64,000 nt of DNA from an uncultured Roseovarius sp. (lineage in GTDB: Bacteria; Pseudomonadota; Alphaproteobacteria; Rhodobacterales; Rhodobacteraceae), in NCBI GenBank assembly GCA_963422235.2, contig CAXMWV010000001.1, positions 174,228 through 238,227 of the forward strand, in the 5' to 3' direction. Under the pieces are notes generated by a model. That model saw only the letters and a list, made by a program, of their open reading frames with translations, did not search any database and was not told where the DNA came from. This document shows, one piece after another, positions 8,693 through 22,662 of this stretch; position 1 is the first letter of the stretch; each line of letters opens with the position of its first letter. The translations under genes and the position numbers were made by a program.

Positions 8693-9415
8693 TCAGTTTT
8701 GGAACAGGCGGCCGGGCCCTGTACCACCTCCGGCACCTGCCAGTTTCAGTACATGCCACAGCATGGCAGAGTTGGAGCTGATCACAGGAACGCCGGTTTT
8801 GGCCTCCGCCTCGTCAATAATCCCGAAACTGCGCAGGTTCGTGCAACTGCTGAACACCGCTTCAACGCCGTCCACCTTGGCCGCAGCCTCAATTGCCGCC
8901 AGCGTAGAGCTTTCCGCGATCCGCGCGACGCGACGATCATCGCGTTCACCAAAACTCTGCTCCGACAATACTTCAATGCCATTACGCTCCAGAAAGGCCC
9001 GCATAGGTGCAACCACGTCGGGCGCATAGGGTGTCACCATTGCGATACGCTTTGCGCCCAAATGGTTCAACGCGGCCAGCACACCACTGATCGGATTGGT
9101 CACCGGCACATCCGACTTGGCCTTTCCAACTTGGCGCGCCACGGCGTCAGGCCCAATCACGACCGAGGCCGAGGTGCAGCCGTAACCAATCGCATCCAAC
9201 CCCTCTGGCAGCAACTCTGCCGAAGCCGTCATCCGCGCCTCCATCATTCCAAGGTTTTCAGGCGTCACATCCGGGGCGCATTCGATCCGCGTATGCAACA
9301 GTGAGACATCCCGTCCCACCATCACCTGCCGGGCCTCGTCCTCTAATGTCTCGTCGGTGCTCAGCACGATCAGACCAATGCGGAGCACATCTTTTGTTTC
9401 GATCTCATAGTCCAT
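8693..9415 (-). CDS. Asp/Glu racemase superfamily protein (maleate isomerase / arylmalonate decarboxylase-like)
   Basis: 240 aa starting [22 protein letters not shown]. Two Cys motifs (GYGCTSAS and SSCTNLRS) are typical of this family. The start overlaps the anmK stop by 1 nt. Confidence 0.7.
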   Translation of the reverse strand: MDYEIETKDVLRIGLIVLSTDETLEDEARQVMVGRDVSLLHTRIECAPDVTPENLGMMEARMTASAELLPEGLDAIGYGCTSASVVIGPDAVARQVGKAKSDVPVTNPISGVLAALNHLGAKRIAMVTPYAPDVVAPMRAFLERNGIEVLSEQSFGERDDRRVARIAESSTLAAIEAAAKVDGVEAVFSSCTNLRSFGIIDEAEAKTGVPVISSNSAMLWHVLKLAGAGGGTGPGRLFQN

Positions 9416-10515
9416 CACGCCCCTCCCGGCGCACTTAGAATGCCACCGCTTACCGCCGCATGCACGCCTGTTGTGCCCGGGCAGGATGTCGGCAGGCCGC
9501 GAGCCACCCGCACGGCCAGATACGCAAAGGCCTGCGCTTCCAGCATGTCGCCATTCAGCCCTGCATCTTCCACAGGCACAACAGGACAGTCGAGCGCGGC
9601 GTTCATCATTTCCATAAGCACCGGATTGTGCCGACCGCCGCCGGTGACCAGCAAACGCTCGGGTGGTGCCAGGCAATGCTCCATCCCGCGCAGAACCGCG
9701 GCTGCAGACATGCCGGCGAGCGTGGCCACAGCATCCGCATCGCCGAGTTCCCGCACGAGCCCGATCATCTCTGCAAAAGCATCGCGATCCAGCGATTTGG
9801 GCGGCATGCGAGCGAAGTAAGGATCGTCGAGAAACAACTCCAACGCCCCCTGCACCACTTCACCCTGCCGGGCCAGCCGTCCGTCGCGGTCAAATGCCTC
9901 GCCCCGCCGCGCCATCATCAGATCATTCATCGGCGCATTGGCAGGCCCGGTGTCAAAGGCCAACAAAGCCCCGTCGTCTTCAGGTTTGTCCTTACCGGGA
10001 TCAATCCACGTCAGGTTGCCGACACCGCCAAGGTTAAGAAACGCAATCGGTGCGGTCGCCCCCATCCATTTGGCGCAGGCAAAGTGATAGAACGGCGCGA
10101 GCGGCGCGCCCTCCCCACCCAGCTGAATGTCGGAAGACCGGAAATCCCAGACAACAGGCAGGTCAAGTGCCTCGGCTAGGGACGCCCCGTCGCCCACCTG
10201 ATGCGTGCCCCGACCGCGTGGTTCATGGGCAAGGGTCTGGCCGTGAAAGCCAACCAACTCGGCCTCTTCAAAACCTGAAAGCACATCCACATGCGCCGCC
10301 TGCACGACCTCGGCAGCACTAGCAACGTCATCATCGTGCCAAAGCCCCAAAGCCGATTTCAGGACGGCGCGTTCATCGTCCGAGTATGCGCGATACGCAC
10401 TCTCCCCAAACTCCAAAATCTCCACGCCATCCGTGCGCAGCATCGCCGCATCCACCCCATCAAGCGAGGTGCCGGACATGGCCCCGAGGGCCCAGATTGG
10501 GGAGTTGGATTTCAT
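9415..10515 (-). CDS. anmK: Anhydro-N-acetylmuramic acid kinase
   Basis: The N-terminus [18 protein letters not shown] is the AnmK signature. 366 aa from the ATG at 10515. Confidence 0.85.
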
Positions 10516-10749
10516 TGGCTGATCACTTGTTGGCCCTTCATGCCTTGCAATGTCCGGTCCTGACAAGACCCGATGGATCAGGAGCGCAAAGGGCGGCGCA
10601 GGTGTCACGACTGAATGGCCGTTGAGCAACAGGGCGAAGTACGTGCCACCCCAAAGTTCGATTGTTCATGTCGGGGAAACAGACTGTAGACTTGACGAAG
10701 ACGTCGCATTTGACCCCACTGCTGGTATTGCTCACGGGTGGCGGCTCCG

Positions 10750-11715
10750 ATGACTTTACAATTCTTTCCAACCTTTGCAGATCCCTCCGACACAGATGGC
10801 GACCTTGGAGGCGGGGATGGAATCGTGCAAGGCTCCGCAGGCGGCGTAACTTTCACTGTATCGATTGCCAATACGGCCCCGGGTCAATGGGGTATGATCC
10901 TGGGCGACAACCTCACACTTGCAAATACCGGACCATCTACCTCTCTATCGTTTACTTTGACTTGGAATGGCGGTCCAGGCAGCACGCAGGCGTCATCTAT
11001 CGAAGTCGCAGGAAATTTTGATCCTGGAGAAGTGCTCTTTGTCACCTCAAACGGAACAGTTTCAGCCGTGGATGATGTTGCGTTCCAAGGACAAGTTTCC
11101 GCGGTCAGGTTCATTTTGGCACCCAATTTTGACACCGCGCAGCTCGACAGCATCTCACTGGCGCTCAATTGTTTTGCTCCGGGCACGCGGATCGAAACCT
11201 CAGACGGGTCGAAACCGGTCGAAGATCTTTCAGAGCGCGATCTCGTCTTGACCGCCGACGGACGCGTGCTGCCGATACGCTGGATCGGGCACCGGACCGT
11301 CGACAGTCGCCATGAACACCCCACAAAGATCAATCCGATCCGGATCACGGCGGGCGCCTTGGGCCACGGCCTGCCTGAGCGCGATCTGTGTCTGTCGAAG
11401 GACCATGCTGTTGAAATTGACGGTGTGCTCTACGATGCCGGGACATTGGTCAATGGCGTCACGATTTATCAGGAGCAAGGTGTCCTGCCCGAGGGCTTTA
11501 CCTACTACCACATCGCAACAGACGCGCATGAGCTTCTTCTGGCTGAAGGTGTGGCGGCAGAAAGCTTCATCGACCACCGGAGCCGCGATGCTTTCGACAA
11601 TGGCGACGATATGCACGGCCCCATAACCGAAATGACCCTCCCCCGCGTCTCCTCCAAACGCATGGTCCCCGCCCACCTCCGCGCCCGCCTGGCCCCCAAA
11701 TTCGCCGCAGAATGA
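10750..11715 (+). CDS. Hint (bacterial intein-like, Hint_2-type) domain protein, paralog 1
   Basis: N-module of about 140 aa, then LNCFAPGTRIE (Cys codon 11170-11172), [23 protein letters not shown] and a conserved C-tail. ATG at 10750 chosen by alignment with the paralog N-termini. Confidence 0.85.
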   Translation: MTLQFFPTFADPSDTDGDLGGGDGIVQGSAGGVTFTVSIANTAPGQWGMILGDNLTLANTGPSTSLSFTLTWNGGPGSTQASSIEVAGNFDPGEVLFVTSNGTVSAVDDVAFQGQVSAVRFILAPNFDTAQLDSISLALNCFAPGTRIETSDGSKPVEDLSERDLVLTADGRVLPIRWIGHRTVDSRHEHPTKINPIRITAGALGHGLPERDLCLSKDHAVEIDGVLYDAGTLVNGVTIYQEQGVLPEGFTYYHIATDAHELLLAEGVAAESFIDHRSRDAFDNGDDMHGPITEMTLPRVSSKRMVPAHLRARLAPKFAAE

Positions 11716-11834
11716 GGACACATCCCACCCCATTAAATGTGACAGACCCGCTGACCAGACAGAGACCCGATCTACACACCCTTTGAAGTCAACCGTCACG
11801 CGTCCAAACTGATCGCTTACAGAAGAGGCCAACC

Positions 11835-12794
11835 ATGCCCACGCAGTCTTTCACGAACTTTGGAACCTTGACGTCGGAACAGGGCTTCACCGGTGACGTT
11901 GGTAGTGTCTCTTCCACCTCCGGCGGCGTGACCTTTACCCTGTCTGTCGCAGACAGTTCGGTGGATTACTTGATATTGCTTGGCAACGTCGCTTTGGCAT
12001 CCAACAGCGGTTTTTCCGGGACCAACACATTCACACTCACCTGGGACGACGGCGCAGGCGGCACCCAGGCCAGTTCCATCAGTATCAACGGGAATTTTGA
12101 TCTTGGTCAGATCCTATATCTGTCCACCAATGGCACTTTGGCCGCGCAGAGCGGCGTTGCGTATACGGGTCAGGTGACCGAGGTGCAATTCAGGCTTTCG
12201 GGGTTTATTGAAGCGGCATCCATTTCGGACATCAGCCTTTCTATCAATTGCTTTGCCGAAGGCACACGGATGGCGACGCGGGATGGGCCACGGCCGGTTG
12301 AAACGCTGACGGAAGGCTGCGAGGTGCTCACCGCCGATGGCCGCGCAGTGAAGGTCACGTGGCTGGGCCGTCGGACGATAAACAGCCGCACCGCGCATCC
12401 CTCCAAAGTGAACCCGATCCGCATTACGGCAGGGGCTTTGGGATACGGCCTGCCGGAGCGCGATCTGCGTCTATCGAAGGACCATGCGGTTGAAATTGAT
12501 GGTGTGCTTTACGATACAGGCACTTTGGTCAACGACGTTACGATTTATCAGGAGCACGGTGTCCTGCCGGAGAGCTTCACCTACTACCACATTGAAACCG
12601 AAGCGCATGAGCTTCTGCTGGCTGAAGGCGTGGCGGCAGAAAGCTTCATCGACCACCGCAGCCGCGATGCCTTTGACAATAGCGACAAGTTGCGCGGCCC
12701 CATTCCCGAGATGGACCTCCCCCGCGTCGCGTCCAAACGCATGGTCCCCGCCCACATCCGCGCGCGTCTCGCCCCCAAGATCGCGGCGGAGTAA
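11835..12794 (+). CDS. Hint (bacterial intein-like, Hint_2-type) domain protein, paralog 2
   Basis: 319 aa. INCFAEGTRM (Cys codon 12249-12251). Hint module and tail about 85% identical by eye to paralog 1. Confidence 0.85.
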   Translation: MPTQSFTNFGTLTSEQGFTGDVGSVSSTSGGVTFTLSVADSSVDYLILLGNVALASNSGFSGTNTFTLTWDDGAGGTQASSISINGNFDLGQILYLSTNGTLAAQSGVAYTGQVTEVQFRLSGFIEAASISDISLSINCFAEGTRMATRDGPRPVETLTEGCEVLTADGRAVKVTWLGRRTINSRTAHPSKVNPIRITAGALGYGLPERDLRLSKDHAVEIDGVLYDTGTLVNDVTIYQEHGVLPESFTYYHIETEAHELLLAEGVAAESFIDHRSRDAFDNSDKLRGPIPEMDLPRVASKRMVPAHIRARLAPKIAAE

Positions 12795-12951
12795 GTTCCA
12801 GGTCGTCCAGACCGTCCCACGGCGAACCTCTAGACATCAAAAAATCTCTGTTTTTCAATGCAGTGCTGTTGACAGCACTCCCCCTGAGAGTGACATATGA
12901 TCAAACAGTAGCAGCCCAGCAGCAGCGCCAGGCAAACAAAGGATTTCGAGC

Positions 12952-13911
12952 ATGACCCCCAGCCAACTTTTTACTGAATTTGGGACTGGTAACGATAACG
13001 ATTTTGCTGGAACGGGAGATCGCGTCGCAACAGGAACCATCGGTGGTGTAACTTTTACAGTGTCTGCGCCTACCTCGGCGACATCGTGGAGCATGATCCT
13101 TGGCGACAACATCACTGTCGGAAATTCTGGGACAGCTGCAACGCAAACCTTCACGATCACTTGGACTGATGGCAGCGGTGGCAACTCAGCAAGCTCGGTT
13201 TTGGTCACGGGTGCCGCAATCAGCAAACTGTTTTACGAAACCACAGGCGGTCTCGTGTCAGCCACGCCAAATGTCGCTTTTGCGGGGCAAATCTCATCCC
13301 TCAAATTTATTCTTTCCGGCTTCGCAGATTTGGCGACACTTGGATCCCTGTCGTTGTCCATCAACTGTTTCACGCCCGGTACGCGGATCGCGACGCCGGA
13401 TGGCGCACGAACAGTAGAGACACTGCAAACAGACGATTTGGTGCTGACCACAGATGGGCGTGCGGTGCCGGTGACATGGCTAGGCAAGCAAACCATCGAC
13501 GCCCGCACGGTGCACCCCGAAAAAGTAAACCCGATCCGTATCACGGCGGGGGCTTTGGGATATGGCATGCCGGAACGTGACCTGTGTCTATCTCCTGACC
13601 ACGCGGTGGAGATCGACGGCACGCTTTTTAACGCAGGTACGCTGGTGAACGAAACGACGATCTATCAGGAAGATGGCGTCCTGCCGGAAGGGTTCACCTA
13701 CTACCACATCGAAACCGAAACACATGAGTTGCTACTGGCCGAAGGCGTGGCCGCTGAAAGCTTCGTCGACTATGCAGGCCGCGATGCCTTTGACAATGGC
13801 GACGAGTTGCGCGGCCCCATCCCCGAGATGGACCTCCCTCGCGTCTCCTCCAAACGCATGGTCCCCGACCACATCCGCGCCCGGCTCGCGCCCAAGATCG
13901 CGGCGGAGTGA
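12952..13911 (+). CDS. Hint (bacterial intein-like, Hint_2-type) domain protein, paralog 3
   Basis: 319 aa. [10 protein letters not shown] (Cys codon 13366-13368). Same architecture as paralogs 1 and 2. Confidence 0.85.
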
Positions 13912-13997
13912 TCGCTCAGGAGAGACCGCACAACACGGTCTTTCCCTTTACCCATTCCCTGCCTATACAGCCCCGACACGCAATCGGGATCAAAGCG

Positions 13998-15251
13998 ATG
14001 ACCTACCACCCCAAATCGGACTTCATGACCGTCATGATCGAGCGCGGCTTTCTGGCCGATTGCACCGATTATCAGGGCCTTGATGAGGCGCTGAGCCAAG
14101 GGGTGTGCCCGGCCTATATTGGTTTTGATGCCACGGCCACCTCGCTTCATGTGGGTTCACTCATCCAGATCATGATGCTGCGGTGGCTGCAGAAAACCGG
14201 CCACAAACCGATTACGCTGATGGGCGGCGGAACCACCAAGGTGGGCGACCCGTCTGGCCGCGACACGGAGCGGTCCTTGCTGGATGAGGCGCAGATTGCC
14301 GCCAATATCCAAGGCATCGGTCAGGTGTTTGAACAATACGTCACCTACGGCGAGGGCCCCACCGACGCGATCATGGTCAACAATGCCGAGTGGTTGGAAA
14401 GCCTGAACTACATCGAGTTTCTGCGCGACATCGGACGGCACTTTTCGATCAATCGGATGCTGGCGTTTGAAAGCGTGAAGTCTCGGCTGGACCGGGAACA
14501 ATCGCTTAGTTTCCTCGAATTCAACTACATGATCCTGCAAGCCTATGACTTCATGGAGTTGAACCGCCGCTATGGTTGCCTTCTGCAAATGGGCGGCTCG
14601 GATCAGTGGGGCAACATCGTCAACGGTATCGACCTGACCCGCCGCGTATTGGATCAAGAAATCTATGGTTTAACCTCGCCGCTGCTGACCACCTCGGACG
14701 GGCGCAAAATGGGCAAATCCGCCGGTGGCGCGGTGTGGCTCAACGCCGAAATGCTCTCGCCCTACGAATTCTGGCAATTCTGGCGCAACACGACGGACGC
14801 GGACACCGGGCGGTTTTTGAAGCTCTATACCGAATTGCCGGTTGAGGAATGCGACCGCTTGGGAGCTTTGGAAGGGTCAGCCATCAATGACGCGAAGATC
14901 GTTCTCGCCAACGAGGTGACCACCCTGCTGCACGGAGCCGAGGCGGCAGCCGCAGCTGAAGCCACCGCACGCGAAGTGTTCGAGCAGGGAGGCGTGGGTG
15001 ATGACTTGCCGACGCTGGAGTTGTCCGCCGATGAGATTGGCGACGGGATTTCGATTGTTCAGGTGATCGTCAAATCGGGCCTCGCGAAATCTGGTAAAGA
15101 GGCCAAGCGCCTGATTGGCGAACATGGCGCGCGTTTGAACGATGAACCGCTGACCGATACCGGGTTGATGATCGATGCTTCTGCCTTGGCTGACCCGATC
15201 AAGTTGTCAGCGGGCAAGAAACGCCACGCTGTGGTGAAACTGGGCGGCTGA
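13998..15251 (+). CDS. tyrS: Tyrosine--tRNA ligase
   Basis: HIGH-like SLHVGSL and a KMGKS motif. C-terminal S4-like domain. ATG at 13998. Confidence 0.92.
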
Positions 15252-20975: not shown

Positions 20976-21125
20976 ATGTTCAGGCTGATCAAATGGCTCA
21001 TTTACCTCGGACTTCTGGGCTTTGTCGCACTGGTGATCTACGCCTATATCGGACCGTTTTTTGGCGCGGATTTCTCGCCACCTGAGCAGGAAATCCGTCA
21101 GGATCTGATCCTTGAAACACAATAG
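20976..21125 (+). CDS. Small membrane protein, hypothetical (49 aa)
   Basis: MFRLIKWLIYLGLLGFVALVIYAYIGPFF forms one clear TM helix. The longer ORF from 20910 would overlap aroK. Confidence 0.45.
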   Translation: MFRLIKWLIYLGLLGFVALVIYAYIGPFFGADFSPPEQEIRQDLILETQ

Positions 21126-22662
21126 GCTCTTTCGGCTTTGGCTGAGCTGTGCGCTCTGCCCGACGCTGACATGGGCGGATGAACCCCTTTCGGCCATCGA
21201 TTGGCTGAAGGAACCGCCGCCTGTGACGGTAGCACAACCGCTTATCGAACCTATCGGAGAGCCGCAGCCGCAGATCGGAAGTGGGGAAGGCGCAACCGTC
21301 CCGAATGTAGACGTACAGCCCATCGACACATCGGCAAAAGTGGATGCAGTTGGGCTTTTGCCGTCAGCAAGTACTGGTTTGCCGCTCACCCTCTGGCAGG
21401 CCAGCGCGACCGAAGACATCATATCCCGGCTGGGAAACCTTCCCGATACGCCTTTGCCCGCGTTGCAGGCGCTGATCTACACGCTGCTTTTGGCCGAAGC
21501 CGATCCGCCTGCTGATGCGGCTGCCAATGCACGGTTTTTACACGCTCGCGTCGATGCTTTGCAGCGCTACGGTGCGATTGATGCAGCCCTCGCCCTGGTG
21601 GAGCGCGCCGGTCCAGAAACACCACTACTGTTTGACGACTGGATGCAGCTTAGCCTGTTGCGGGGCACCGAACAGCAGGCCTGCAACGCCCTGGCGCAGG
21701 ACCCTACTTTGTCTGAGAGCTATGGCACCCGTGTCTTTTGCCTTGTGCGCACGGGCGATTGGCCGACAGCGGCACTGATTTACGACACGGCCCTGATCAT
21801 CGGACAGCTGGACCCGGCCAGCACGGAGCAGCTGGCCCTCTTCCTTGATCCGGAGTTCGGCGGCAGTGGCATCGACCTTCCTCCGCCTCGAGACATGACA
21901 CCCCTTCTCTTTCGCCTCTACGAGGCCAACGGTAACCCGCTTCCCACGCGATCCTTGCCCCGCGCTTTTGCCGCGGCCGATCTGCGGGGCACAACCGGCT
22001 GGCGGGCCGAGATTGAAGCAGCAGAGCGCCTCGCTCGAACAGGTGCACTGCCCGCCAACCGCTTGTTGGGTCTTTACACCGCCCGGAAACCCGCCGCCTC
22101 AGGGGGTGTTTGGGACCGCGTGCGACACCTGCAGGCCTTTGACAGCGCTATGTTGTCAGGGGACACAACCCGCATTGCCACCTCCCTGCCAGTTGTTTGG
22201 AAAGATATGCTGGCGGCAGACCTGGGCATTGTGTTTGCCACGCTCTACGGCGAACGCCTTTCTCGGCTGGCGCTGCCCGGGCTAGAGGACATGGTTCAAA
22301 CCATTGGCTTGCTGTCGCCCAGCTACGCGTCTCTGCCCGCACCGGGCGAGGCTGCCTCACAGCAGGCCCGTTTTTTGCAAGGATTGGCCAAGGGACAACC
22401 CGACGCATCGCTGGCGCAAAGCCCGACCCAGGAGGCCATCGCCCGTGCGTTTGCCACCCCTACACCAGCCCGCAAATATGCAGGTCCCCTGTCCGAGGGC
22501 AAACTCGGGCAGGTCATCCTGAATGTGATCACCGATCTCAATCGCGCCGTCTCCGGTCGTAGCGGCCAGATCGAAGGCGCGCTCTCTACGTTGCGGTACG
22601 CAGGACTGGAAGATGTGGCGCGCCAGACGGCCCTACAAATCCTTCTGTTGCCGGCCCGATGA
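21112..22662 (+). CDS. Hypothetical exported protein (516 aa, helical-repeat-like), TTG start
   Basis: Signal-peptide-like N-terminus MKHNRLFRLWLSCALCPTLTWA. Ala/Leu-rich helical body. 4-nt overlap with the xerD start suggests co-transcription. Confidence 0.6.
   Translation: MKHNRLFRLWLSCALCPTLTWADEPLSAIDWLKEPPPVTVAQPLIEPIGEPQPQIGSGEGATVPNVDVQPIDTSAKVDAVGLLPSASTGLPLTLWQASATEDIISRLGNLPDTPLPALQALIYTLLLAEADPPADAAANARFLHARVDALQRYGAIDAALALVERAGPETPLLFDDWMQLSLLRGTEQQACNALAQDPTLSESYGTRVFCLVRTGDWPTAALIYDTALIIGQLDPASTEQLALFLDPEFGGSGIDLPPPRDMTPLLFRLYEANGNPLPTRSLPRAFAAADLRGTTGWRAEIEAAERLARTGALPANRLLGLYTARKPAASGGVWDRVRHLQAFDSAMLSGDTTRIATSLPVVWKDMLAADLGIVFATLYGERLSRLALPGLEDMVQTIGLLSPSYASLPAPGEAASQQARFLQGLAKGQPDASLAQSPTQEAIARAFATPTPARKYAGPLSEGKLGQVILNVITDLNRAVSGRSGQIEGALSTLRYAGLEDVARQTALQILLLPAR

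Follow-up and report, generated by a model that had tools for sequence, protein, structure and literature searches.

Locus and gene organization

Three similar genes stand in tandem between two housekeeping genes, and the question raised by this locus is whether they make up a dedicated system or are neighbouring members of one protein family, and what such proteins would do with their variable and conserved parts. The genes, here called A, B and C, lie on the forward strand of the 64-kb window (the whole stretch of DNA that was analysed). Gene A (10750..11715) encodes 321 residues, and genes B (11835..12794) and C (12952..13911) encode 319 residues each; the open reading frame (ORF) list confirms these lengths and the start-to-start distances of 1085 and 1117 nt. 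All three products match the Pfam family Hint_2 (PF13403), with E-values of 9.5e-40 (gene A, residues 141–275), 1.7e-37 (gene B) and 1.8e-39 (gene C), and tblastn, which also supports genes B and C, finds exactly three copies in the window. Given these E-values and a pairwise protein identity of 61–62%, the resemblance between A, B and C goes far beyond chance. An alternative upstream GTG at 10738 would extend gene A to 325 residues (10738/10750..11715 in the ORF list), but the ATG at 10750 is preferred because the N-terminus of the family reads M-x-x-F-x-F. The public gene call for gene A (P0006, 215 residues) places the start too far downstream. Gene B has a ribosome-binding site, GAAGAGG, 6 nt upstream of its ATG, and gene C is preceded by AAAGGA.

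The left boundary of the slot is anmK (anhydro-N-acetylmuramic acid kinase, 9415..10629, reverse strand, Pfam AnmK E 7.7e-68), which is divergent from gene A, and the right boundary is tyrS (tyrosyl-tRNA synthetase, 13998..15251, forward strand, Pfam tRNA-synt_1b E 8.8e-76); both lie outside the feature. The true start of tyrS is probably the ATG at 13998, which gives a protein of 417 residues that is 92% identical to the 417-residue TyrS of a syntenic locus, L001. The anmK neighbour is also present there, so that the anmK–tyrS slot is conserved, with three genes in the window and two in the related genome. Gene C and tyrS are separated by a terminator-like hairpin (13919..13945, forward strand) with a 10-bp stem and a 7-nt loop followed by CUUUA. 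The RNA of positions 13909–14000 folds at −30.3 kcal/mol (z-score −4.6; none of 200 shuffled sequences gives as stable a fold), and the hairpin is not listed by a simple terminator consensus scan because it has no long T run. The A–B spacer (11713..11834, forward strand, ~120 nt, fold z-score +0.75) and the B–C spacer (12792..12951, forward strand, ~160 nt, fold z-score −0.23 for 12792–12940) contain no significant RNA structure, no Rfam match and no ORF. A neighbourhood survey of 53 related loci found no universal partner gene. The locus had been described as system-like in the original prediction, a view that is not borne out: it contains three paralogues of one family in a housekeeping region, has no partner gene and is not a multi-component system.

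Domain anatomy and the Hint core

Each protein consists of an N-terminal module, a Hint core that starts with a cysteine (Cys1) and a C-terminal tail. In gene A, the N-module (10750–11169, 140 residues) is followed by the Cys1 codon (11170–11172, residue 141), which opens the Hint core (11170–11565, 132 residues), the tail (11566–11712, 49 residues) and the stop codon (11713–11715). The corresponding elements of gene B are at 11835–12248 (N-module, 138 residues), 12249–12251 (Cys1, residue 139), 12249–12644 (Hint core), 12645–12791 (tail) and 12792–12794 (stop), and those of gene C at 12952–13365, 13366–13368 (residue 139), 13366–13761, 13762–13908 and 13909–13911. The Cys1 codons lie exactly where the original prediction had placed them (11170, 12249 and 13366). 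Most of the motifs that it listed as shared also stand: GGVTFT(V/L)S, FT(L/I)TW, the (L/I)NCF(A/T)(P/E) junction and RARLAPK(I/F)AAE are present in all three proteins. Others are less uniform, as KDHAVEIDG of genes A and B reads PDHAVEIDG in gene C, and in gene A the DG.GG stretch is GG.GS. At the N-terminus the motif is less strict than claimed, with M1, Q4, F6 and F9 invariant among A–C and a family consensus of M-P-T-F-D/E-F.

The predicted assignment of the Cys1-initiated module to Hint_2 and the bacterial intein-like (BIL) domains is upheld by an HMM search, which gives a PF13403 match of ~1e-38 in all three proteins; the scores of 136.8, 129.5 and 135.9 bits compare with a gathering score of 28.4, and the matches span profile positions 2–145 of 147. 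The AlphaFold2 model of the full gene B protein has a mean pLDDT of 88.4. In Foldseek, the Hint part matches Tetrahymena BUBL BIL2 (PDB id: 6tmm, E 6e-4), the Clostridium thermocellum BIL (PDB id: 2lwy) and several inteins; the family profile matches 2lwy as well (E 0.0027). In an alignment of 61 family members C139, H217, F248, Y250, H252, H258 and E269 are invariant. Block B reads S214-K/P-D216-H217, with S214 and D216 conserved in at least 90% of these relatives, and the block F region FTYYH...HELLLAEG is conserved as well. Cys1 is followed by Phe in 57 of the 61, while the residue before Cys1 varies (Asn in 39 of 61). At the C-terminal junction, A-E-S/T-F/Y, the last three positions hold in all 61; the register comes from a hand alignment to the Mxe GyrA intein and not from a structural superposition. 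In this hand-aligned register, the His-Asn end of inteins is replaced by Glu-Ser/Thr and the +1 residue is Phe or Tyr, never Cys, Ser or Thr. The earlier reading of a Cys1 combined with a non-nucleophile after the module extends to the family, in which Cys1 and the block B His are invariant. Both the Hint core (dN/dS ~0.15) and the tail (0.2–0.3) are under purifying selection.

By their sequence features, A–C are paralogues within the B-type BIL (Pfam Hint_2) family of Rhodobacterales, the equivalence of the two family names being drawn from the features that they share. The source papers on B-type BILs are reportedly Amitai et al. 2003 (Mol Microbiol 47:61) and Dassa et al. 2004 (JBC 279:32001). 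Like A–C, B-type BILs have Cys1 and blocks A, B (S-x-D-H) and F, and do not have block G (His-Asn) or a +1 nucleophile. They occur in variable, non-conserved, multi-copy alphaproteobacterial proteins, and some relatives carry RTX repeats. There is no essential difference, except that A–C are small (~320 residues) and their cargo is a single β-sandwich and not a long repeat region. In type B BILs block G is absent and cleavage is uncoupled from splicing (PMC4031507), N-terminal cleavage is intein-like and C-terminal cleavage atypical (PMC7765530), and their self-cleavage in vitro was reportedly demonstrated twenty years ago (reviewed in PMC4031507 and PMC7765530).

The Hint fold and Cys1 are also features of true inteins, mobile elements that splice out of a host gene, and gene C has a weak, sub-threshold match to the intein N-terminal model TIGR01445 (E 0.19). 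That A–C are such elements is extremely improbable: they contain neither His-Asn nor a +1 Cys, Ser or Thr, their flanks are a variable β-sandwich and a 49-residue tail instead of a conserved host protein, there is no homing endonuclease, and many divergent copies are found per genome. A canonical intein was rejected on the Glu-Ser/Thr then Phe/Tyr junction and on NCBIfam intein models that stay below threshold. A-type BILs (2lwy; the secreted RTX protein YP_168868 of Ruegeria pomeroyi, PMC2953401) share the Hint fold and the missing +1 nucleophile with A–C and reside in secreted, variable bacterial proteins. Unlike A–C, which end in Glu-Ser|Phe, they keep the C-terminal His-Asn, can splice and are internal to large proteins. 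The best structural match, the Tetrahymena BUBL BIL (6tmm, 6y75), has the Hint fold and activates the C-terminus of its upstream domain as a thioester, but it is only 14% identical in sequence, and it flanks and conjugates a ubiquitin-like domain, whereas A–C contain nothing ubiquitin-like.

In polymorphic toxin systems (Neisseria MafB, CDI), Hint domains also serve to set toxin domains free, and tandem variable paralogues such as A–C look like toxin cassettes. Pretoxin-HINT (PF07591) is likewise a self-releasing Hint peptidase of variable, multi-copy secreted proteins, and a relative at locus L014 has a weak PT-HINT match (E 4e-4, below the cut-off). It is nevertheless very unlikely that A–C are polymorphic toxins or effectors, with immunity genes and a pretoxin-HINT domain for release. 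What such systems release is a variable domain at the C-terminus, which has its own immunity gene; in A–C the variable part is N-terminal to the Hint core and the C-terminal part is the conserved 49-residue tail. A–C do not match PF07591, no immunity genes stand between them because the ~120- and ~160-nt spacers hold no ORF, and neither PADLOC nor PHROG returned a match.

The N-terminal module

The N-modules of A–C (138–140 residues) are acidic (pI ~4.05), rich in Gly, Ser and Thr (34–43%) and poor in Lys and Arg (1–3 residues), and have no Cys. Modelled alone, the gene B module is confidently predicted to be a 12-strand all-β sandwich (AlphaFold2 pLDDT 91.4, pTM 0.87). Profile and fold searches found no significant known relative, and no enzyme family was matched; none of the outcomes that the original prediction had listed as counting against it was observed. 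A 3-sequence N-module profile matches giant Big_9 proteins via the FT.T..DG.GG motif. A Big_9/cadherin-like Ig repeat was considered and rejected, as Pfam Big_9 is matched by gene B only and below the cut-off (E 0.0066, 17.8 bits against 23.6), and an hhalign comparison of 61 aligned N-modules with 120 Big_9 repeats gave a probability of 1.7% over 18 columns.

The N-modules are 33–47% identical where flanking genes are 72–92% identical, a comparison that marks them as fast-evolving. Other cargo is seen in two relatives: in P0119, Hint_2 and the tail known from A–C come after RTX repeats, and P0125 has ten Big_9/cadherin-like repeats directly before Hint_2. These relatives carry the Hint cassette behind cargo of extracellular type.

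Proposed processing, export and role of the tail

The best explanation of the locus as a whole, and a probable one, is that A–C are B-type BIL paralogues in which cleavage at Cys1 frees the N-module without splicing, that the proteins probably work outside the cytoplasm and that the array is a mosaic. What the analysis shows of this is family membership, the conservation of the catalytic residues, the anatomy of the domains, purifying selection, the mosaic pattern and the lack of a fixed partner gene. The Hint core would fold, and Cys1, assisted by the Ser-x-Asp-His block and block F residues, would attack the preceding Asn–Cys peptide bond (an N–S acyl shift). The resulting thioester would be resolved by water, or possibly another nucleophile, which would free the N-module from the Hint-plus-tail part. 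Splicing is not expected because A–C have no C-terminal Asn and no +1 nucleophile. Self-cleavage of A–C is suggested by homology and by the conserved residues; cleavage in vivo, localisation and biological role are inferred.

Once outside the cytoplasm, A–C would probably act as variable surface or secreted modules. Their first 30 residues, read directly, contain neither a Lys/Arg n-region nor a hydrophobic core, so no Sec, Tat or lipoprotein signal is present, as the original prediction had noted for signal peptides. Export would be Sec-independent, possibly by a type I system with the signal in the tail. On the other side, a Hint core that folds in the cytoplasm would cut the cargo off before export, and the tail, conserved and confidently modelled (pLDDT 84–96 in the gene B AlphaFold2 model), is not what type I signals typically look like. 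Two Roseobacter exoproteome supplements have no entry for a Hint or intein protein.

Type I substrates are typified by RTX repeats and have their signal in the last 50–60 residues. The tail might be such a signal, the Hint core cutting itself and the signal off after export to leave a free N-module outside. This possibility, a more specific version of the export proposed in the main explanation, is tentative and somewhat doubtful. The missing N-terminal signal peptide suits it, as do the acidic, Cys-poor and Lys/Arg-poor cargo, the low pI of the whole proteins (4.5–5.0, with two Cys each), the homologous Hint-plus-tail cassette at the end of the RTX protein P0119, the position of the L014 family member among three RTX 'calcium-binding proteins', and the co-enrichment of PF13403 and RTX domains in fast-growing Rhodobacteraceae (PMC12487129). 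The tail, however, is strongly conserved and modelled as ordered, A–C have no RTX repeats (no PF00353 match), and only one RTX-bearing relative is present among the 120 matches listed. Type I secretion genes are absent from the 64-kb window and from 10 kb around any of the 53 related loci, near which there is no fused TMD-NBD exporter, HlyD or TolC gene; a recurrent ABC cluster there encodes soluble importer ATPases. As the gene of a type I substrate need not lie near those of its exporter, the missing genes lower the probability of this route and do no more.

The tail accompanies 74 of 80 Hint-core ORFs, and tail-only ORFs number zero; it is coupled to this Hint core. As a conserved 49-residue extension of the core, it has also been considered as an adduct-recognition region like that of Hog proteins. 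The thioester would then be attacked by a specific nucleophile other than water (a glycan, lipid or cell-wall group), tethering the N-module covalently. The three-part order of variable N-domain, Hint domain with a Cys-Phe start (57 of 61 in the family) and short conserved C-terminal region matches that of Hedgehog/Hog proteins, in which cleavage without splicing also proceeds through a thioester and one processing cassette serves diverse N-domains (PMC2362128). The strict coupling and predicted order of the tail fit as well, and ~10 of 53 loci adjoin genes for a TPR-sulfotransferase and a TPR-glycosyltransferase, in several gene orders; at L014, which lies on an Antarctobacter plasmid, the family member has glycosyltransferase and sulfotransferase genes of an unrelated kind as neighbours. 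Adduct transfer is still an unlikely reading. The tail is not known to resemble sterol- or adduct-recognition regions in sequence or profile, the TPR partner genes are absent from the A–C locus and the whole 64-kb window, and published in-vitro work on B-type BILs describes plain cleavage (PMC7765530, PMC4031507). A–C have no Pfam Hog-Hint (PF01079) match, Hint_2 being the sole Pfam report at E up to 1; their junction is Asn-Cys-Phe and not Gly-Cys-Phe; and they have no signal peptide and are bacterial, not eukaryotic.

An extension of this idea by analogy, to which we give a small chance, is that the Hint core and tail are a bacterial counterpart of the Hog domain. The tail would pick a nucleophile other than water, for example a glycan, sulfated or not, that the TPR-glycosyltransferase and TPR-sulfotransferase produce. 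The Asn–Cys thioester would couple the variable acidic β-sandwich covalently to it at the cell surface, and arrays with 3′ gene conversion would sustain a repertoire of exchangeable modules. About one fifth of the related loci have these TPR genes beside the family member.

Arrays and mosaic evolution

Tandem arrays are found in 28% of the 53 related loci; at least 13 paralogues reside on one 3.29-Mb contig, and relatives are carried by 214 plasmid records. Identity at third codon positions is ~0.3 at the 5′ end and climbs to ~0.85 towards the 3′ end. For tails within one array, synonymous-codon identity reaches 0.87 (B–C) and 0.81 (two genes of L012); for tails of different genomes it is 0.27–0.69. 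These patterns indicate that the array evolves as a mosaic, in which gene conversion would homogenise the 3′ Hint and tail parts while the 5′ cargo stays divergent. In L001, a neighbouring relative has Gly in place of Cys1 and an intact ORF.

The same homogenisation could mean that the Hint part is not catalytic in vivo, with A–C being stable full-length variable proteins and their 3′ halves a homology block for reshuffling N-modules. The copy number of two or three in the same slot of related genomes and the intact Gly-for-Cys1 relative point that way, and reviews credit the discoverers of BILs with the idea that they promote variability and genetic rearrangement (PMC7765530). This alternative is rather improbable: Cys1, the block B His and block F residues do not vary among the 61 relatives, dN/dS at the protein level is ~0.15, and a sequence retained just for recombination would not hold its catalytic residues constant. 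Self-cleaving B-type BIL paralogues remain the preferred explanation.

Place in the family and significance

The family has been known since 2003 and is large in marine Rhodobacterales; A–C are ordinary new members, and public annotation as 'Hint domain-containing protein' is routine. Hint_2 proteins are among the most expanded function-unassigned gene families in Roseobacter-group bacteria, and PF13403 is enriched, together with RTX domains, in fast-responding, fast-growing Rhodobacteraceae (PMC12487129). The literature searched yielded no paper that assigns a family function, cargo role, export route or biological role, and no description of the strict tail coupling, the tandem arrays or the 3′ gene conversion. 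New here are the predicted acidic β-sandwich N-module, the tail coupling, the anmK–tyrS slot, the 3′ homogenisation, the frequency of arrays and the subset with TPR genes.

The A–C locus leaves the overall picture of the Hint_2 family unchanged. It offers a compact test case, with three intact paralogues that combine divergent cargo with near-identical processing cassettes in a housekeeping context free of confounding neighbours. The experimental handles are the predicted but unclassifiable acidic β-sandwich, the tail that is inseparable from the Hint core and, in a subset of the family, the linkage to TPR-glycosyltransferase and TPR-sulfotransferase genes.

Organization of the tandem array

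The array occupies the forward strand between anmK (reverse strand) and tyrS (forward strand) and consists of gene A (10750–11715, 321 residues from an ATG; a GTG at 10738 would add four residues), gene B (11835–12794, 319 residues) and gene C (12952–13911, 319 residues). Each protein comprises an N-terminal cargo module of about 138–140 residues (N-module), a Hint core of 132 residues beginning with a cysteine (Cys1), and a C-terminal tail of 49 residues. The original prediction described three such reading frames, and the ORF list bears out their positions, the start-to-start distances of 1085 and 1117 nt and the cysteine codons at 11170, 12249 and 13366; the described sequence blocks are present in all three proteins, with minor deviations in single copies. 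By tblastn, the 64-kb window holds these three copies and no others. Neither a basic n-region nor a hydrophobic core is present in the first 30 residues of any of the proteins, so no Sec, Tat or lipoprotein signal is recognized, in line with the lack of a signal peptide noted from the sequence. In the public protein collection, gene A is represented solely by P0006, a 215-residue protein that starts inside the N-module, and the existing call of this gene therefore seems to begin too far downstream. At the other end of the array, a mechanical tyrS ORF from GTG 13908 overlaps the stop codon of gene C and is too long; comparison with L001, a related metagenomic genome, points to ATG 13998 as the tyrS start.

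A strong terminator-like hairpin at 13919–13945 (−30.3 kcal/mol for 13909–14000, z-score −4.6), which the consensus terminator scan did not list, lies between gene C and tyrS and probably ends transcription before tyrS. Regulatory RNAs and promoter signals were considered and rejected: the two internal spacers (A–B and B–C) display no significant RNA structure and no Rfam match, the promoter and terminator scan yields no more than chance, and the hairpin after gene C is the sole standout.

The Hint core, the tail and the proposed processing

All three proteins match the Hint_2 profile (PF13403; E-values of 9.5e-40, 1.7e-37 and 1.8e-39 for A, B and C) over profile positions 2–145 of 147, with the match beginning exactly at the Cys; NCBIfam, PHROGs and PADLOC return nothing significant for them. 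Given 61 homologues, AlphaFold2 models the gene B protein with confidence (mean pLDDT 88.4). According to Foldseek, the C-terminal half of the model matches the BIL2 domain of Tetrahymena BUBL (a bacterial intein-like domain, BIL; PDB id: 6tmm, E 6e-4), several mini-inteins and a Clostridium thermocellum BIL (PDB id: 2lwy), which the family sequence profile also reaches (E 0.0027).

In an alignment of 61 sequences, Cys139, His217, Phe248, Tyr250, His252, His258 and Glu269 (gene B numbering) are invariant; for Ser214 and Asp216, conservation reaches 90% or more. These residues are the counterparts of intein block A (Cys1), block B, in which Ser-x-Asp-His replaces Thr-x-x-His, and block F. The domain ends with Ala-Glu-(Ser/Thr) followed by Phe or Tyr in 61/61 sequences, which extends to the aligned relatives the earlier remark that the residue after the module is not a nucleophile. 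Aligning the domain end by hand with the Mxe GyrA intein, we take the Glu to stand at the place of the penultimate His, the Ser/Thr at that of the terminal Asn, and the Phe/Tyr to be the +1 residue; Asn cyclization and trans-esterification to a +1 nucleophile would therefore both be impossible. The anatomy of A, B and C corresponds to that of type B BILs as reviews describe them, which cleave N-terminally like inteins and whose C-terminal cleavage is atypical (PMC7765530). The profile match, the catalytic residues and the domain end all support the original identification, and the proteins can be assigned to the Hint_2/B-type BIL family with the N-terminal catalytic set intact and the C-terminal splicing set lost. 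Two other identities, a true intein and a polymorphic toxin, were rejected because their defining features fail. A non-catalytic role as a recombination scaffold alone is contradicted by the invariance of the catalytic residues.

The 49-residue tail is conserved family-wide (RD.FDN......I.EM.LPRVS..R.VP...R.RL), with Phe280, Met293, Arg297 and Arg302 invariant in the 61-sequence alignment, and is modelled in gene B at pLDDT 84–96. Its dN/dS of 0.2–0.3 indicates purifying selection, which acts on core and tail alike, and the cargo is variable. Across 53 related loci, 74 of the 80 ORFs with a Hint core carry the tail, and no ORF carries the tail alone; the two parts form a single unit in evolution.

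After folding, Cys1 would perform an N–S acyl shift on the Asn138–Cys139 bond, and the thioester would be resolved, most simply by water, with release of the N-module. Since B-type BILs are described in reviews as cleaving at either end, the C-terminal junction may be cut as well. The −1 residue is Asn in 39/61 sequences and could in principle resolve its own thioester via a succinimide, a route that we mention as speculation.

The N-module

Modelled alone, residues 1–138 of the gene B protein form a 12-strand all-β domain (pLDDT 91.4, pTM 0.87). The fold search proposed with the original prediction produced a very confident β model and no structural match with E ≤ 0.001 in the PDB or among the predicted viral structures of BFVD. 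The best Foldseek matches, with E-values around 1e-2 and TM no higher than 0.45, are the carbohydrate-binding modules CBM86 (PDB id: 6sgf, E 8e-3, TM 0.45) and CBM29, a C-terminal domain of PNGase, and cupins; they point to a β-sandwich of jelly-roll-like type without narrowing it further. No known enzyme or domain was recognized in it above threshold by Pfam, NCBIfam, PHROGs or PADLOC. In the models, the first β-strand (E4–6) is formed by the N-terminal motif (family consensus M-P-T-F-D/E-F), whose simplest reading is therefore a structural one and not that of a signal for targeting. In composition the N-modules are extreme, with a pI of about 4.05, one to three Lys plus Arg per 138–140 residues, 34–43% Gly+Ser+Thr and no Cys.

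When 1.84 billion representative proteins are searched with a profile built from the three N-modules, close family members are retrieved along with many giant Big_9/cadherin-like repeat proteins. The latter, together with a sub-threshold Pfam match, gave rise to the idea that the N-module is a Big_9/cadherin-like Ig repeat. This was rejected at the domain level: comparison of the whole family's N-module with 120 Big_9 repeats in hhalign gives a probability of 1.7% over 18 columns, so the apparent resemblance is that of the FT.T..DG.GG strand-turn motif alone.

The cassette on other cargo

Two relatives carry the Hint domain behind different proteins. P0125 consists of ten Big_9 repeats followed directly by Hint_2 (junction ...ATVHITVP/CFAAGT), and P0119 is an RTX-repeat protein that ends in a Hint-plus-tail cassette of the type found in the window (48% identity through the tail). 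The cassette therefore sits on several kinds of typically extracellular cargo. By analogy with these RTX- and Big_9-bearing relatives, and from the composition of the N-modules, the A, B and C proteins probably act outside the cytoplasm. An attractive refinement of the export step would be a type I route in which the tail serves as a signal that removes itself: P0119 ends in the same cassette, and a plasmid relative (L014, described below) lies among RTX genes. We regard this route as doubtful, however, as the tail seems more conserved and more ordered than would be expected of such a signal and there is no linked exporter (no type I exporter is found near the 53 related loci). As a further example of a Hint_2 cassette capping a large protein, a giant 1902-residue ORF in L087 (5342–11047) has a Hint core near its C-terminus and is without the family tail.

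Evolution of the array

Within the array, third-codon-position identity rises sharply, from ~0.3 in the 5′ half to 0.7–0.9 in the last 350 nt, with about 0.85 reached at the 3′ end. The 3′ parts with raised synonymous similarity are 11350–11712 in gene A, 12430–12791 in gene B and 13550–13908 in gene C (all on the forward strand). Where the amino acid is the same, tail codon identity is 0.87 for B–C, 0.66–0.68 for A–B and A–C, and 0.81 for one pair in an independent array (L012), compared with 0.27–0.69 between genomes. The 3′ rise, which recurs in the L012 array, and these codon identities suggest partial gene conversion, which would homogenize the Hint and tail parts of neighbouring copies and not the cargo. 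The cargo parts, to judge from their substitutions, are old and divergent: their synonymous sites are saturated (pS about 0.77), so that dN/dS is not computable for the N-modules. Tandem arrays are typical of the family: among 53 non-redundant loci with a length of 8 kb or more, 15 hold 2–5 copies, almost always head to tail. The largest arrays observed, both on marine metagenome contigs, have five (L070, 2701–8487) and four (L048, 10277–15523) head-to-tail Hint_2 genes within 6 kb.

Genomic neighbourhood

The window is ordinary core chromosome, with anmK, tyrS, an OYE-type oxidoreductase, an ars-type regulator, aroB and alaS as well as typA, bamA, rseP, guaB and dxs. A phage, gene-transfer-agent or defence origin was rejected given the absence of PHROG and PADLOC matches, flat GC across the window and the housekeeping neighbours. 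Elsewhere in the window, an uncharacterized exported protein may be encoded by a 516-residue ORF (21112–22662, forward strand), whose N-terminus (…LSCALCPTLTWADEP…) resembles a signal peptide and for which Pfam gives no match at E ≤ 0.001. L001 has the same gene order, with two Hint_2 genes between anmK and tyrS. Flanking proteins are 72–92% identical between the two genomes, the Hint-plus-tail parts 73–77% and the N-modules 33–47%, the last without one-to-one orthology. After tyrS, L001 carries a divergent third Hint_2 copy (12501–13640, 379 residues, Hint_2 E 3e-34) that has no counterpart in the window. In it, Gly replaces Cys1 (SGFAPGT) and the family tail is missing; it is apparently an intact ORF yet a catalytically dead relative.

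The survey for a fixed partner gene, also proposed originally, revealed none: in all-against-all clustering of flanking ORFs, no gene recurs in more than eight of the 53 loci once Hint genes and the generic ABC ATPases of importers are set aside. The soluble ATPases of such importers form the sole widely recurring non-Hint cluster in these loci. In ~10 loci from several genera, the Hint gene has a TPR-sulfotransferase, a TPR-glycosyltransferase or both as neighbours. More than one gene order occurs among these loci, and a GNAT and one to three proteins with a phage-tail-collar domain are often present as well. A conserved same-strand cluster of collar (1–3), GNAT acetyltransferase, Hint_2, TPR-sulfotransferase and TPR-glycosyltransferase genes, spread over several Rhodobacterales genera, is found in L004 (6773–15562), L005, L006, L052, L056 and L062, and a rearranged form in L008, L063 and L088; we found no paper on this cluster. 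Because the adjacency survives rearrangement, it hints at a functional link, possibly to protein glycosylation or sulfation.

L014 is a locus on the Antarctobacter heliothermus plasmid pSMS3-2 (NZ_CP022542.1, 82279–98821), in which a 410-residue Hint_2 protein lies among three RTX 'calcium-binding proteins', an FkbM methyltransferase, two glycosyltransferases and a family-2 sulfotransferase; its glycosyltransferases and sulfotransferase are unrelated to those of the TPR-gene loci. The window contains neither these L014-type glycosyltransferase, sulfotransferase and RTX genes nor the TPR-sulfotransferase, TPR-glycosyltransferase, collar and GNAT genes. A second plasmid (L013) carries two Hint genes in tandem beside IS6 transposases. 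The glycosyltransferase and sulfotransferase neighbours of some relatives would suit a Hedgehog-like reaction, in which the N-module is transferred to a specific nucleophile to form an adduct, and the three-part architecture fits it too (PMC2362128), but it is otherwise unsupported and we consider it improbable. Release of the N-module by water remains the simplest proposed outcome.

Relation to known Hint_2 proteins

Genes A, B and C are new members of a known family, the B-type BIL/Hint_2 proteins, reportedly first described in 2003. Public records already label their relatives 'Hint domain-containing protein', and these are widespread, occurring on alphaproteobacterial chromosomes and in 214 plasmid records. 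Our literature search found no functional study of the gene family of A, B and C, and the text of two Roseobacter exoproteome supplementary datasets names no Hint or intein proteins. The locus would not surprise a specialist in B-type BILs and, taken alone, gives no new access to the old question of their role, although it would make a convenient model.
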